Origin: an uncultured Bacilli bacterium
GTDB lineage: Bacteria; Bacillota_I; Bacilli_A; RF39; UBA660
DNA: 64,000 bases
Assembly: GCA_934096945.1 (NCBI GenBank)
Contig: CAKOND010000004.1
Location: 18,569 to 82,568, forward strand
Direction: 5' to 3'
A program made the position numbers and the translations under genes. Every line of letters starts with the position of its first letter. Position 1 is the stretch's first letter. Below, piece by piece: positions 3,025 to 53,524 of this stretch. The notes under the pieces were generated by a model. That model was not told where the DNA came from. It searched no databases and saw nothing but the letters and a program-made list of their open reading frames with translations.

Positions 3025-6040
<3,016 letters not shown>

Positions 6041-9961: not shown

Positions 9962-10046
9962 TTTAGACGTGCAACAAATATGCTGTAACTTGGTCAGGAT
10001 TGGAAAATAGCAGCCACATCAGCCTATGTTTGTGTGCACATTTTTT
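9962..10046 (+). ncRNA. ffs: Small (4.5S-type) signal recognition particle RNA
   Basis: Contains the conserved SRP domain IV helix-8 signature GGUCAGG-auu-GGAA-aau-AGCAGCC (compare E. coli 4.5S GGUCAGGUCCGGAAGGAAGCAGCC). Terminal helix GUGCAACAAA/UUUGUGUGCAC, then a U8 tract. Sits just upstream of dnaX as in Bacillus (scr-dnaX). Confidence 0.6.
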
Positions 10047-10058
10047 TTGGAGGAAAAC

Positions 10059-19924: not shown

Positions 19925-20125
19925 TAATTAACGAAGAAGGAAAGAGTAGATATCATTCATTTCATAGAGATTTCTTGGTTGGTGGAAAAGAAAAAATGAA
20001 GATATTCGAACATGGCTCTGGAGTTAAAATCGGGTAATTACGTTATAGATTTTAAGTTGCATGATAAATCATGAATTAAGGTGGTACCGCGGGTTATACT
20101 CGTCCTTAGTTTGTGATTTTTTTTT
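19925..20125 (+). promoter_or_regulatory. T-box riboswitch leader (probable Met specifier) upstream of dut-metG-tatD
   Basis: 20074-20093 AATTAAGGTGGTACCGCGGG matches the T-box consensus AATTAGGGTGGNACCGCGG at 18 of 19. A 16-bp helix (20066-20081 with 20104-20119) is followed by a T9 tract at 20117-20125. Upstream there is a candidate stem I with AGAGA and an AUGA specifier-like triplet at 19996-19999. Confidence 0.6.
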
Positions 20126-49008: not shown

Positions 49009-49659
49009 ATGAAAAATTATTATGTTAAAATCATGTCTGTTTTTTTAGGTTTATTTATACTTATGTATGATTATCCAGTTAGGGCTGATTTACCACTTCA
49101 GGGTAAAGTAATTGTTGTTGATAGTGGCCATGGCGGTCTTGATCCTGGTGCTCTTTATAATGATATTTATGAAAAAGATATAACTCTTGCAATTGGTAAA
49201 TATTTGGAAAAAGATTTGAGTAAAATGGGTGCTACAGTTATTATGACAAGAAGTGATAATAATGATTTAAGTAATGGAGCTAAAAATCATCGTAAAAAAG
49301 CAGATTTTGATGAAAGAATTAAAATTATAAATCAAAAATATGTTGATATGTATGTTTCTGTGCATTTAAATTATTTAACTGACTCAAGATATTATGGTGC
49401 TCAAGTTTTTTATAATAAAGATAATGAGAAATTAGCTGAAAGTGTGCAAGAATATTTAAATAAAAATACGAATAGTAATAGAGAAGTAAAAAAAATCCCT
49501 ACTTCAACATATATGTATGATAAGTTAAAAACTAAAGGTATTTTAGTGGAATGTGGTTTTTTATCAAATTCTATGGAAAGAAGTAAGCTTGTAACTAAAG
49601 AATATCAAATGGAATTTGCTCGAGTATTATCTGATGCTATAAGTCATTATTATAATTAA
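49009..49659 (+). CDS. cwlD: Germination-specific N-acetylmuramoyl-L-alanine amidase CwlD
   Basis: Amidase_3 zinc motifs (VDSGHGG…, SVHLN, …ECGF). 216-aa size and location near rpsI as in Bacillus (rpsI-ybaK-cwlD). Confidence 0.75.
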   Translation: MKNYYVKIMSVFLGLFILMYDYPVRADLPLQGKVIVVDSGHGGLDPGALYNDIYEKDITLAIGKYLEKDLSKMGATVIMTRSDNNDLSNGAKNHRKKADFDERIKIINQKYVDMYVSVHLNYLTDSRYYGAQVFYNKDNEKLAESVQEYLNKNTNSNREVKKIPTSTYMYDKLKTKGILVECGFLSNSMERSKLVTKEYQMEFARVLSDAISHYYN

Positions 49660-49767
49660 GTTAATATTTCACTTTTTCTTCACGAGTTTTTTACATTATA
49701 TCCATTAATTAGGTATATATTTATTTTGTCAGTTGTGATATAATGTTTAAAGTAAAGGCGGTATAGT

Positions 49768-50703
49768 GTGAAATCGAAAACATTTAAAACATTAGATGAA
49801 CAAATTGACATACTTACAAAAAAAGGTTTAGTGGTTGAAGATATTGAGGCTGCTAAAACTATTTTGTTGCGTGAAAACTACTTTTTCTTAAGTGGTTACC
49901 GTCATTTATTTATGAAGCCTGATGATAACAAAACTTATCTAGAAGGTACAACATTTAATGAATTATATTCGATGTTTCTTTTTGACAGACAAATAAGAAA
50001 TATACTTTTTAAAAATATTTTAGTTGTAGAAAATAATTTAAAAAGTATACTTGCTTATGTAATGAGTAAAAATCATGGGTTTAAAGAAAATAATTATTTG
50101 AATCCAAATAACTTTGTAAGGGATTCAAAAAGGAATAGACAAATTAATGATTTAATTAGAAAAATGAAAAGACAGATAAGTGTTAATAGTAAACAACATA
50201 GTGCAACTGCGCATTACCTTATTAATTATGGTTATATTCCTCTTTGGGTTGTTGTGAAGGTTTTATCATTTGGAATAGTTGGTGAACTTTATACAATACT
50301 TCAGTATCAAGATCAAAAGGAAATTGCTGATGTTTTTGGTGTTAGTATTGATAGTATGGTGGATTATTTACCAATTGTTGCTAATTATCGTAATTTATGT
50401 GCTCATGAAGATGTTTGTTATATAAATAGAACTCAAAAAGCTATTGATGATACAAAATATCATAAACTATTGTATATTCCTAAAATAAATGAGGAATATA
50501 TATATGGAAAGAATGATTTGTTTGCATTAATAATTATTTTAAAACAATTGCTTGATGAAGATAATTTTAATTTGTTTATTAGTGAGATAGGTTATGAACT
50601 TGATAGACTTTCAGGTAAATTAAAGGTAATTAAGATAGAAAAAGTATTACATGAAATGGGATTCCCAAATAATTTTAAAGAAATAGTGAGGTTAGAAAAA
50701 TGA
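49768..50703 (+). CDS. Abi_2 family abortive-infection protein (AbiD/AbiF-like)
   Basis: The N-terminus KTLDEQIDILTKKGLVVEDIEAAKTILLRENYFFLSGY matches the Abi_2 family start (…eQielLk.rGl…d…a…L..inYyrlsgY). GTG start after RBS AAAGGCGG. The stop overlaps the htrA start. Confidence 0.7.
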   Translation: MKSKTFKTLDEQIDILTKKGLVVEDIEAAKTILLRENYFFLSGYRHLFMKPDDNKTYLEGTTFNELYSMFLFDRQIRNILFKNILVVENNLKSILAYVMSKNHGFKENNYLNPNNFVRDSKRNRQINDLIRKMKRQISVNSKQHSATAHYLINYGYIPLWVVVKVLSFGIVGELYTILQYQDQKEIADVFGVSIDSMVDYLPIVANYRNLCAHEDVCYINRTQKAIDDTKYHKLLYIPKINEEYIYGKNDLFALIIILKQLLDEDNFNLFISEIGYELDRLSGKLKVIKIEKVLHEMGFPNNFKEIVRLEK

Positions 50704-51812
50704 ATGAAGAACAAAACAAACAAAGAAAAAAAATAGTTTATTATTTAATTGCATTTTTTGTAGGATGCTTGGCTATGTATGCTGTTGTATATTTTTTTCC
50801 AACTAGTATAACTGAAAATATTACTAAACTTGAAAAAGATGTTACAGTTACTGATAAAGGTATTGCTGATGCTGTTGAAAAGGTTTATGATGCTGTGGTA
50901 GTTGTTTCTACTTATAAAGATCAAACTTTGATATCATCTGGTACTGGATTTGTATATAAAAAAGATAGTAATAACTACTATATTTTGACTAATCATCATG
51001 TTATTGATGGTGGTAATAAGGTAACTGTTACGTTTACAAGTAAAGATGCTGTAGAAACTAAAGTAGTTGGTTCTGATCAATATGCTGATATTGCAGTTTT
51101 AAGCTTAGAAAGTACAAAAGATTTGGCTGTTGCTGAACTTGGTAAAAGTGCAGATTTAAGAGTTGGTGATACAGCGTTTGCAGTTGGTGCACCACTTGAT
51201 ACTGCTTATTCTTGGACTGTTACGAGAGGTATTGTGTCTGGTAAAGAAAGAGAAGTTGCTGTTTCCCTTAATAATTCGAGAAGTAATGATTATGTTATGA
51301 AAGTTTTACAGACTGATGCAGCAATAAATTCAGGTAATAGCGGTGGACCTTTATGTAATAGTAATGGTGAAGTAATTGGTATTACATCACTTAAACTTGT
51401 AAGTAGTGGTGTTGAAGGTATGGGATTTGCTATTCCAATTGAAAATGCTATTACTAAGGCTGAACAAATTATAAGTGGTGAGTCTTATGAATATCCTTAT
51501 TTAGGTATTCAAATGCTAGATATTACTGATGCTTATAGTTTATATCAATATTATGATTTAATTAAATCTTCTGGTCTTTCTAGTGGTGTTCTTGTTGCAA
51601 GTATAGAAAAAGGTAGTCCAGCTAGTAAAGCTAAATTTGAAACAAATGATATAATTACTAAAATAGATGGTAATGAAGTTAAAAACTTGGCTTATTTAAG
51701 ATATTATTTGTATCAACATAAAGTAGGAGACACTATTAAAGTTACAGTTTATAGAGATGGAAAAACTAAAGAACTTAGTGTTACTTTAGGAACAAATAAG
51801 CAAACGACATAG
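50700..51812 (+). CDS. htrA: HtrA/DegP-family S1C serine protease with PDZ domain
   Basis: N-terminal TM anchor. Catalytic triad contexts TNHHVI, DIAVL, GNSGGPL. C-terminal PDZ domain. Confidence 0.88.
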   Translation: MNEEQNKQRKKIVYYLIAFFVGCLAMYAVVYFFPTSITENITKLEKDVTVTDKGIADAVEKVYDAVVVVSTYKDQTLISSGTGFVYKKDSNNYYILTNHHVIDGGNKVTVTFTSKDAVETKVVGSDQYADIAVLSLESTKDLAVAELGKSADLRVGDTAFAVGAPLDTAYSWTVTRGIVSGKEREVAVSLNNSRSNDYVMKVLQTDAAINSGNSGGPLCNSNGEVIGITSLKLVSSGVEGMGFAIPIENAITKAEQIISGESYEYPYLGIQMLDITDAYSLYQYYDLIKSSGLSSGVLVASIEKGSPASKAKFETNDIITKIDGNEVKNLAYLRYYLYQHKVGDTIKVTVYRDGKTKELSVTLGTNKQTT

Positions 51813-51840
51813 TTTGCTTATTTAACTTTTTGGAGGGTAT

Positions 51841-52452
51841 ATGAAATTAAAAAGATTTGTGGCATATTTAATTGATATTTTACTTGTGGGTTTTATTGCT
51901 TCCGCTATTGCAAGTATTGATGTATTAAATCCTTATTATGATGATTATTTAGATGCTTATGATAAGTTTAATGAAACACTAGATAAAGTTGATGAAAGTA
52001 ATGTAATTGATGTAGTTACAAGTGGTGATTTTACTCTTGAATATAAAAGTGTTTTAAAATATGGTGCTTGTACTTCAATTATTTCCGTTTCTTGTTATTT
52101 ACTTTACTTTGTTGGTTTTCAAAAATGGAATAAAAATCAAACTATTGGGAAGAAACTTATGAAAATTAAAGTTGTTAATAAAGATGGTAGTGATAATGTA
52201 AGTATATGGAGATATGCCGTAAGAACAATATTTGCTTATAATTTGTTTTTTAATAGTTTAGGCATTTGTATAGCATTTTATTTTAGTGGAAAATCTTTCT
52301 TAATAACATTTATGGTTGTTAGTTTGCTGGGGTATTTAATTACTTATGCTGGTTATTTAATGATTTTGTTTAAAAAAGATGGAAGAGGTATTCATGATAT
52401 GATTGGTGCTACTAAAGTTGTGGAGGTAGAAAATGTCCCTTGTGAAAGTTAA
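51841..52452 (+). CDS. RDD-family membrane protein
   Basis: 203 aa with three TM segments and an RDD-like layout. Its 3' end overlaps the first remnant of the ybaK pseudogene. Confidence 0.55.
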   Translation: MKLKRFVAYLIDILLVGFIASAIASIDVLNPYYDDYLDAYDKFNETLDKVDESNVIDVVTSGDFTLEYKSVLKYGACTSIISVSCYLLYFVGFQKWNKNQTIGKKLMKIKVVNKDGSDNVSIWRYAVRTIFAYNLFFNSLGICIAFYFSGKSFLITFMVVSLLGYLITYAGYLMILFKKDGRGIHDMIGATKVVEVENVPCES

Positions 52453-52800: not shown

Positions 52801-52947
52801 GTAGTTCCGTTATATTTAATTTTATCATAATGTATTCTCCTTATAGACTTATTTTATCTAATAAGAAAAATATAAATAAGATACTTGCATTACCCCTTTT
52901 TTGGTTTATAATGTTAATCAAGATAGGAGTATACATAATGAAATAAT

Positions 52948-52980
52948 AAAACCAGCAAGTTTAAATGCTTGCTGGTTTTA
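52948..52980. terminator. Bidirectional terminator hairpin
   Basis: Stem ACCAGCAAG(T)/(G)CTTGCTGGT with a 6-nt loop, then TTTT. Overlaps the stop of the minus-strand Cys-rich ORF. Confidence 0.6.
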
Positions 52981-53524
52981 GTCTTATTCTTGCTTTACCT
53001 AAATCTTCTTCAGGTGTTTTGATTGTATAATCTAAATTTGCATTACTTAGTGCATAGCCAAATTTATTCTTTAGCTCATTTACCATGTTTGTGTAGATTT
53101 GAACTGCACTTTCATAACGATTTTGCTTAATTAAATCATAACATGGTATTATGTATTTATGCGCTAGGACTATTGAATCAATTACTGGACACTTTGCTAA
53201 TTCGTTACTTATTACAGGCCCAATAATGTCATATTCTTGTAGTAAATCTTTACCTGAATTAGTTTTCTTTAAATAATTTTCTCTGATAAATCTCAGCGTT
53301 TGTAAGACATCGCAATTGTCTTCATATCCAAGAATTTCACAAACTATTGTAGTTATGAAGCAACCAGATGGCTGATAACCTCCTTCAAGTTTTTTTACAT
53401 AGCTATAACATGCTTTTTCACTTGCGTCTTTATATTTGCAAGTTTCTGTACAGTAATATCTGTCTCCCCAGTATTCTTTTTGATTTTTGTCAAAATGCGC
53501 ACAATTTCCACAGTAATCTGCCAT
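52961..53524 (-). CDS. Hypothetical cysteine-rich protein (187 aa; N-terminal CxxC…C…C zinc-ribbon-like region plus a CFITTIVC motif)
   Basis: Intact ORF on the opposite strand, with RBS GGGGG-aatagtaaaATG. Twelve Cys in the first 75 residues. No family recognised. Confidence 0.5.
   Translation of the reverse strand: MADYCGNCAHFDKNQKEYWGDRYYCTETCKYKDASEKACYSYVKKLEGGYQPSGCFITTIVCEILGYEDNCDVLQTLRFIRENYLKKTNSGKDLLQEYDIIGPVISNELAKCPVIDSIVLAHKYIIPCYDLIKQNRYESAVQIYTNMVNELKNKFGYALSNANLDYTIKTPEEDLGKARIRLKPASI

Follow-up and report, generated by a model that had tools for sequence, protein, structure and literature searches.

An AbiF-type HEPN protein gene fixed upstream of htrA in RF39-type gut Bacilli: a candidate domesticated toxin

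Introduction

The abortive-infection proteins AbiD and AbiF are the protein halves of two-component systems in which they are paired with a non-coding RNA (ncRNA); these have been described as type III toxin–antitoxin (TA) systems and as relatives of the ancestor of Cas13 (PMC13064643, PMC12373285). The Abi2 family has been classed within the HEPN superfamily, with the eukaryotic Swt1 grouped alongside it (PMC3710099), and the HEPN domains of Cas13 are proposed to be descendants of AbiF (PMC12373285). The known representatives, such as AbiF, AbiD and AbiD1 of Lactococcus plasmids, AbiFCd of the C. difficile prophage phi027 and PbAbiF, are single proteins of ~300 amino acids (aa) with a full-length Abi_2 domain; they are plasmid- or prophage-borne, patchily distributed and preceded by a structured ncRNA (Rfam RF03085 or a related one). 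Chromosomal Abi_2 copies are also on record, including near-core ones present, for example, in ~89% of S. aureus genomes, with a function stated as unknown (PMC12373285). Here we examine such a gene, hereafter abi, in a stretch of 64,000 nucleotides (nt) from an uncultured Bacilli bacterium of the RF39 lineage (assembly GCA_934096945.1, contig CAKOND010000004.1, positions 18,569 to 82,568, forward strand), which we call the window; its immediate downstream neighbor encodes an HtrA-like protease.

The window gene shares with these representatives the full-length Abi_2 domain in a single protein of similar length. Unlike them, it belongs to the chromosomal core, with a fixed place at the head of an htrA operon, and has no structured ncRNA in cis. 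It shares HEPN RNase chemistry with Cas13, to which its structural similarity is distant; unlike Cas13, it is small, has a single HEPN domain and comes with neither a CRISPR array nor a guide RNA. The chromosomal Abi_2 of the S. aureus type is likewise widely retained, and a linkage to htrA has not been reported for it. The literature searched contained nothing relevant on an association between Abi and htrA; we assign the gene to a core, htrA-coupled AbiF-like subfamily of RF39-type Bacilli that lacks a recognizable RNA partner.

Results

An AbiF-type HEPN protein with an intact catalytic motif

49768..50703, plus strand: gene for the Abi_2/AbiD-F-type HEPN protein, 311 aa, GTG start
50389..50406, plus strand: codons of the HEPN RNxxxH motif, R208-N-L-C-A-H213, placed by alignments of orthologs and relatives

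The initial annotation, made by reading the letters of the window, had assigned the product of abi to the Abi_2 (AbiD/F-like) family, and profile searches bear this out. In a hidden Markov model (HMM) search, Pfam Abi_2 (PF07751) scored 141.1 bits, well over its cutoff of 25.6 (E = 6.4e-41; residues 32-216 on profile positions 2-181 of 184), and the PADLOC AbiD profile matched the protein from end to end (E = 7.6e-59; residues 1-308 on profile positions 2-276 of 277); among the NCBIfam models none was found for it. When a profile of the orthologs was compared with the PDB, one solved structure was matched, 8vz6 ('Abi family protein'; E = 1.4e-21). Consistent with this, an AlphaFold2 monomer model (predicted local distance difference test, pLDDT, 90.3; predicted template-modeling score, pTM, 0.88) aligned over its full length in Foldseek with 8vz6_A ('PbAbiF dimer bound to ncRNA'; template-modeling (TM) scores 0.77/0.80, E = 1.1e-10), which was the sole PDB match below E = 1e-3, the matches to Cas13d being weak. 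Window Abi thus has the fold of the PbAbiF/AbiFCd group at ~20% identity to PbAbiF in the structural alignment.

The same RNxxxH HEPN motif is shared with that group. The block R208-N-L-C-A-H213 and many others are invariant in 19 orthologs of 51-95% identity, and in a 43-sequence alignment that includes prophage-type relatives all residues of the motif except L210 remain invariant. The block conforms to the R-x4-6-H (R-phi-xxx-H) catalytic motif of the HEPN superfamily, and its equivalents in AbiFCd, R202 and H207, are needed for toxicity and for ncRNA binding (PMC12373285). The window protein is a genuine AbiD/AbiF-type HEPN homolog; we infer that it is an RNase acting through the intact RNxxxH site, presumably as a homodimer with a single HEPN domain per protein.

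Abi and htrA adjoin across a deep clade of gut Bacilli

50700..51812, plus strand: htrA-like gene for a membrane-anchored serine protease (transmembrane anchor, Trypsin_2, PDZ), the partner of abi
49009..49659, plus strand: upstream gene for an Amidase_3 (CwlD-like) protein (Pfam Amidase_3, E = 3e-40)

The initial annotation had cast abi as a defense gene inserted into a housekeeping and sporulation neighborhood between cwlD and htrA. To survey the position in relatives, a single scan of a genome collection was made with HtrA as the query and one genome per species, so that loci could be recovered with or without abi; it yielded 35 loci from species-representative metagenome-assembled genomes (MAGs), with HtrA identities from 97% down to 44%, in which abi was sought by tblastn and extraction of open reading frames (ORFs). 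In all 35, htrA is directly preceded by an Abi ortholog, which in 31 is an intact ORF of 309-313 aa; three more (loci L021, L033 and L039 of our survey) are cut by contig ends, L039 showing just the last 22 abi codons. The MAGs bear the names 'uncultured Bacilli', 'uncultured Tenericutes', 'uncultured Erysipelotrichaceae' and Firmicutes bacterium CAG:460, to which the protein search adds Clostridium sp. CAG:609; CAG-460 has been placed in the order RF39, family UBA660 (PMC13155120). No outgroup genome of the lineage with htrA and without abi was found.

A reverse search, with an Abi alignment against metagenome contigs, recovered 80 loci, 77 of them with at least 150 nt of downstream sequence, and htrA adjoins abi in 70 of the 77. 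Five are clear exceptions (L095, L125, L128, L140 and L141; Abi 58-63% identical) and two further loci are too short. In these five, abi is followed by genes for thioredoxin plus thioredoxin reductase or for small membrane proteins, in chromosomal, non-mobile contexts; their leaders are short and hairpin-free, with an element resembling the extended -10. The recurrence of the ortholog at one spot in all related genomes overturns the claim of an insertion; the annotation itself had named such a pattern as the mark of an ancestral core gene rather than an acquired defense, and by that yardstick abi is therefore ancestral.

The neighbor on the other side is not constant. In L035-L037 and L040-L041 the CwlD-like gene has either moved away from its place before abi or is missing, and in L035 and L036 both flanks consist of entirely different genes with the abi-htrA pair still together; furthermore, strains with an identical Abi protein have insertions upstream of abi and never between abi and htrA. 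The conserved partner of abi is htrA, not cwlD. The identity of the amidase as CwlD is itself plausible but not established: against TIGR02883 (CwlD) it scores 184.7 bits, under the cutoff of 221.55, yet this is its top NCBIfam model. In B. subtilis, too, only a few genes separate cwlD from rplM-rpsI upstream of it, the same arrangement as for the amidase gene here, which supports positional orthology. Of the cwlD-htrA interval proposed in the initial annotation, the htrA-like side is conserved and the amidase side varies among lineages. Taken together, these data make abi an ancestral core gene, passed on vertically within a deep clade of gut Bacilli with reduced genomes; the clade is of the RF39 type and includes CAG:460- and CAG:609-like MAGs.

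Some individual loci deserve separate mention. In the UMGS1410 MAG (L018, ~7120), a single-T deletion turns GGTTTAG into GGTTAG and creates a stop near abi codon 17 in an ortholog that is otherwise 96% identical; this is either an assembly or consensus error of the MAG or the sole pseudogenized copy seen. A contig labeled 'Agathobacter sp.' (L012) bears an RF39-type abi-htrA-rdd locus (Abi 87%, HtrA 80%) and is probably mis-binned. Among four loci with an identical Abi protein (L002-L004 and L006), the upstream region is variable and the abi-htrA junction intact: ttcA is reduced to its C-terminal half in L002-L004, genes for a Mob_Pre relaxase, a LysR-type regulator and a GH10 protein lie just upstream of abi in L003, and L006 has an extra gene for a 182-aa Zn-ribbon protein between the amidase and abi.

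Native composition, strong constraint and co-divergence with htrA

Set against the 36 other genes of the window, abi has native composition and codon use (z = -0.93 for GC content, +0.40 for GC at third codon positions, GC3, and -0.17 for synonymous-codon likelihood), and the region as a whole has an even GC profile; the skew relative to its neighbors, which the initial annotation had offered as a check, does not materialize. Its statement that mobile-element scars are absent agrees with our result that the only repeats flanking abi are short AT-rich chance matches and that no mobile genes accompany it.

At the protein level, Abi identity exceeds HtrA identity in 463 of 465 genome pairs, and Abi is the more conserved of the two in 70 of 71 metagenome loci. 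In the comparison with L010, for instance, identity is 95% for Abi, 94% for the methyltransferase, 83% for TtcA, 80% for HtrA, 78% for the CwlD-like protein, 76% for RluA and 58% for the RDD protein. The Nei-Gojobori (NG86) omega of abi is 0.04-0.10 in the closest genome comparisons. The pairwise identities of Abi and HtrA are correlated (Spearman 0.93) and produce identical clusters, which is the pattern predicted by co-inheritance. Thus, abi is under purifying selection and co-diverges with htrA.

A local anomaly was noted in the comparison with three CAG:460-like loci (L010, L013 and L014): the DNA of abi and its promoter (window 49709-50703) is 90-97% identical, with a proportion of synonymous differences (pS) of 0.28, whereas the CwlD-like and htrA flanks are just 68-90% identical (pS ~0.47-0.55), with steps at the gene borders; in closer relatives such as L008, abi similarity is no higher than that of the flanks. 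This suggests interspecies exchange of alleles by recombination or, alternatively, constraint on synonymous sites.

Homologs of Abi on plasmids and phages are at most 32% identical, and an IMG/VR scan of viral contigs with the window protein returned no close relative. In a library clustered at 50% identity, the clade is reduced to one full-length representative, and beyond it no full-length relative exceeds 42% identity; these nearest relatives are found in settings typical of prophages or plasmids, adjoining endolysin/holin, XRE and integrase genes. The notion that abi is a lone phage-defense gene recently acquired and inserted between cwlD and htrA draws on its membership in Abi_2, a typically mobile family. 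It runs against the shared position in all related genomes and the co-divergence with htrA, the native composition and codon use, the lack of repeats or scars, and the want of a close relative on phages, plasmids and viral contigs. We hence give it a negligible probability; recent acquisition was ruled out as a candidate on the flat GC and codon statistics, the absence of flanking repeats and the universal synteny.

A conserved putative promoter, a short leader and an overlapping junction

49734..49744, plus strand: extended -10 element TGTGATATAAT, ~24 nt before the abi start, read from the sequence
49755..49761, plus strand: ribosome-binding site AAGGCGG of abi, 6 nt before the GTG; AAAGGCGG/AGGTGA in orthologs
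50687..50703, plus strand: ribosome-binding site of htrA (GTGAGG) within the final Abi codons, plus the ATGA overlap, read from the sequence

The extended -10 element, in the form TGTGRTATAAT/TATGATATAAT, is kept at equal distance in all aligned orthologous loci; it lies ~20-25 nt before the start in every lineage, and 70 of 76 metagenome loci have an element of the TGnTAnnnT type. It likely acts as a promoter, and the leader that follows it in the window is only ~20 nt. Many of the orthologs begin with non-ATG start codons.

At the other end of the gene, the abi stop TGA (50701-50703) overlaps the htrA ATG (50700-50702) as ATGA, just as had been noted at the outset. At almost every orthologous locus the stop and the start are -4, -1 or +1 to +12 nt apart, and GAGG or AGG for htrA lies within the last abi codons; the integration of abi into an operon, also part of the initial annotation, is thereby extended from the window to its orthologs. 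These features point to a single abi-htrA(-rdd) transcript with coupled translation.

Upstream of and across the promoter (window 49688-49751) there are conserved ACATTA/CCATTA repeats, with an inverted TAATGT over the -10 region, and the closer orthologous loci have TTTACATTA..ACATTAA in common. The repeats could be a binding site for a regulator of the abi-htrA promoter.

No AbiF-type RNA partner in cis

The ncRNA of the characterized systems was sought with the Rfam abiF model RF03085, which found nothing in the window at its gathering threshold, at E<=5 over the whole window or at E<=10 over 49300-51000, and likewise nothing in 8 orthologous loci; as a positive control, the motif was found upstream of the abiF of a C. 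difficile phage at 37.6 bits. The model failed on the nearest mobile relatives as well, because of which its absence alone is not discriminating, and the leaders were therefore compared directly. By script, 7 of 8 mobile or prophage relatives have a GC-stem hairpin that lies between a sigma-70-type promoter and the start, within 100 nt of the latter, and in 6 of the 7 a T-rich tract follows it; in the eighth (L058), a hairpin outside the loop limit of the script was seen by eye and later supported by the model R1 described next. In the core clade, the same kind of hairpin within 100 nt upstream of the start was found in none of 31 genome loci and none of 76 metagenome loci (107 in all). R1, a covariance model built from the leader of the sister clade, recovers copies in mobile loci on which it was not trained; even with filters off it finds nothing in the window, where its best score, away from abi, is 14.6 bits (E = 0.5), and it finds nothing in 12 orthologous loci. 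Finally, a leader of ~20 nt is too short for an AbiF-type ncRNA. Thus, neither of the two attributes of AbiD/F type III TA systems, a cis-encoded ncRNA and a patchy location on mobile elements or in defense islands, was found here.

The nearest proteins outside the clade, the prophage-borne Abi_2 of uncultured Bacilli (the P0127/P0135/P0298/P0384 group), provide the closest contrast. At 36-42% full-length identity they have the same invariant residues and come from similar AT-rich Bacilli hosts; they differ in their endolysin/holin, XRE repressor and integrase neighbors and in having spacers of 200-380 nt with a promoter, a leader consisting of a hairpin plus U tract and an antisense 3' copy of it, none of which is present in the window.

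The leader of the prophage-type relatives (L052-L061) is noteworthy in its own right. It is a conserved element of ~50 nt, with AAGTTGTGAT followed by a hairpin with a conserved loop and then a U tract, which Rfam abiF does not recognize. Over the 3' end of each prophage-type abi there is, on the opposite strand, a second copy on which the model had not been trained, with the same loop and compensatory changes in the stem; in L053, for example, the leader lies at 3934-3984 on the plus strand and the second copy at 4955-5005 on the minus strand. Possibly, this leader represents a new variant of the ncRNA that accompanies AbiF.

Only two Rfam matches in the window exceed the gathering threshold, a bacterial small signal recognition particle (SRP) RNA at 9963-10048 and a T-box leader at 19925-20110; there is no tRNA or other RNA gene near abi.

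The HtrA-like partner and the surrounding genes

The downstream protein is of the HtrA/DegP type with the standard Gram-positive HtrA architecture: a hydrophobic N-terminal segment visible in the sequence, a Trypsin_2 domain (E = 7.5e-33) and a PDZ_2 domain (E = 7.9e-24); HtrA models are its best NCBIfam matches, though below their species-specific cutoffs. Beyond it lie the following features.

51794..51823, plus strand: weak terminator-like hairpin overlapping the htrA stop, 12 pairs, 3 GC
51841..52452, plus strand: gene for an RDD-family membrane protein (Pfam RDD, E = 2e-16)
52947..52980, no strand assigned: strong bidirectional terminator-like hairpin, 13-14 pairs, 5 GC

The RDD gene follows htrA in most of the close loci and is absent in L034-L037 and L040-L041, which makes it a frequent and not a constant third gene. 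The strong hairpin at 52947-52980 is likely to be the end of the abi-htrA-rdd unit. Convergent to the operon, on the minus strand of the window at 52961-53524, is a gene for a Cys-rich 187-aa protein with no Pfam family on record, and most close relatives retain it there.

No defense-island neighbors were found around abi. PADLOC matches of the neighboring genes are to generic domains (methyltransferase, ABC ATPase, trypsin fold), and on that account these genes were rejected as defense systems.

This bears on the idea that Abi and the HtrA-like protein might together form a two-gene defense module, in which a HEPN RNase would be joined, by analogy to protease-containing defense systems, to a trypsin-like effector or sensor. 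The pair is indeed tightly conserved with translational coupling, and the protease domain partly matches the protease modules of RT-Protease, LmuA and Avs1b in PADLOC. These matches, however, span the generic trypsin fold only; moreover, the architecture is that of a standard HtrA, the protease is predicted to be extracytoplasmic and hence apart from a cytoplasmic RNase, and some members of the subfamily lack an htrA neighbor. We accordingly hold such a module to be quite improbable.

Discussion

The gene described here is ordinary in its identity; its evolutionary behavior is what would not be expected of the Abi_2/AbiD family. We propose, with a probability of roughly 0.55, that it encodes a domesticated RNase of the AbiF fold that lacks an RNA antitoxin, is co-expressed with HtrA and has a cellular role rather than one in mobile defense. 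Briefly, we advance the following plausible scenario. An ancestral AbiF-type toxin would have been domesticated in the RF39-type lineage, where abi would be the first gene of a small operon driven by the conserved extended -10 promoter and preceded by a short, unstructured leader. Translation of abi would run straight into htrA; as the htrA ribosome-binding site is inside the last abi codons, both proteins would be made from one mRNA, with coupling probable. The intact RNxxxH site might still cleave RNA, without an RNA antitoxin, and the cellular job of the enzyme could be RNA processing or turnover, or that of an RNase linked to stress and regulated together with HtrA, the envelope protease.

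Several considerations weigh against this proposal: (i) the protein has the catalytic site and overall fold of a toxin, and the family to which it belongs points to defense; (ii) what suggests a non-defense cellular role is the evolutionary pattern only; (iii) small, reduced genomes can keep their defense genes with unusual stability (PMC5379612); (iv) near-core chromosomal Abi_2 genes occur elsewhere, as in the S. aureus genomes cited above; (v) the link to htrA is not absolute, with at least five metagenome loci having other downstream genes, which means that a functional tie is not obligatory; (vi) an RNA or protein inhibitor might possibly be encoded in trans elsewhere in the genome, beyond the 64-kb window; and (vii) all the genomes surveyed are MAGs, and their sampling was seeded by HtrA similarity.

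Some of these considerations converge on a different account, which we regard as a serious but distinctly less likely contender: abi could be a functional AbiD/F abortive-infection gene that has become permanently fixed, sensing phage and stopping translation by RNA cleavage, with its position next to htrA being incidental. What keeps it silent would then be low translation from GTG/TTG starts, an inhibitor whose gene lies elsewhere, or auto-inhibition intrinsic to the protein. The strong full-length AbiD match, the PbAbiF fold and the intact RNxxxH motif are all as this account would have them, as are the non-ATG starts of many orthologs and the prophage-borne state of the nearest relatives in similar hosts. 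All members of the family studied experimentally are phage-defense or toxin proteins (PMC13064643, PMC12373285), and the greater stability of defense genes in reduced genomes (PMC5379612) would further accommodate its retention. It fits poorly, however, with 100% occupancy of one locus in 35 species down to 44% HtrA identity, and with a gene that evolves more slowly than those for HtrA and the CwlD-like protein while co-diverging with the former. Also counting against it are the absence of both the cis ncRNA of the characterized systems and the structured leader of the mobile relatives, and the lack of defense-island neighbors beyond generic domain-level PADLOC matches.

Within the preferred interpretation as a domesticated RNase, a more specific version may be formulated, if only speculatively. 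We take the AbiF family to be the proposed ancestor of Cas13 and HtrA to be a protease of secretion stress. Given this context, the AbiF-type HEPN protein without an RNA antitoxin might be a core ribonuclease translationally coupled to HtrA across RF39, linking quality control of the envelope and secretory apparatus to mRNA decay in a manner reminiscent of Ire1 and regulated Ire1-dependent decay (RIDD), or replacing a housekeeping RNase that was lost as the genome shrank. In eukaryotes, Swt1, Las1 and the KEN domains of Ire1 and RNase L offer precedents for HEPN domains in cellular RNA surveillance and stress signaling; these are multidomain proteins, and their likeness to window Abi is by analogy only. 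We consider this version unlikely as it stands.

What, then, are the implications of these observations? Abi_2/AbiD is among the most often called 'defense systems' in genome censuses, and in these an order-level clade of abundant gut bacteria would score as AbiD carriers, though their gene behaves as a housekeeping one. If abi is indeed domesticated, it would be a clear example of a toxin or defense RNase converted to cellular use, and would offer an AbiF that naturally lacks its antitoxin, in which to study how HEPN activity can be tamed. If it is still a defense gene, it would be an unusually stable and chromosomally entrenched one. Either reading counsels caution against equating an HMM match with a function in defense.

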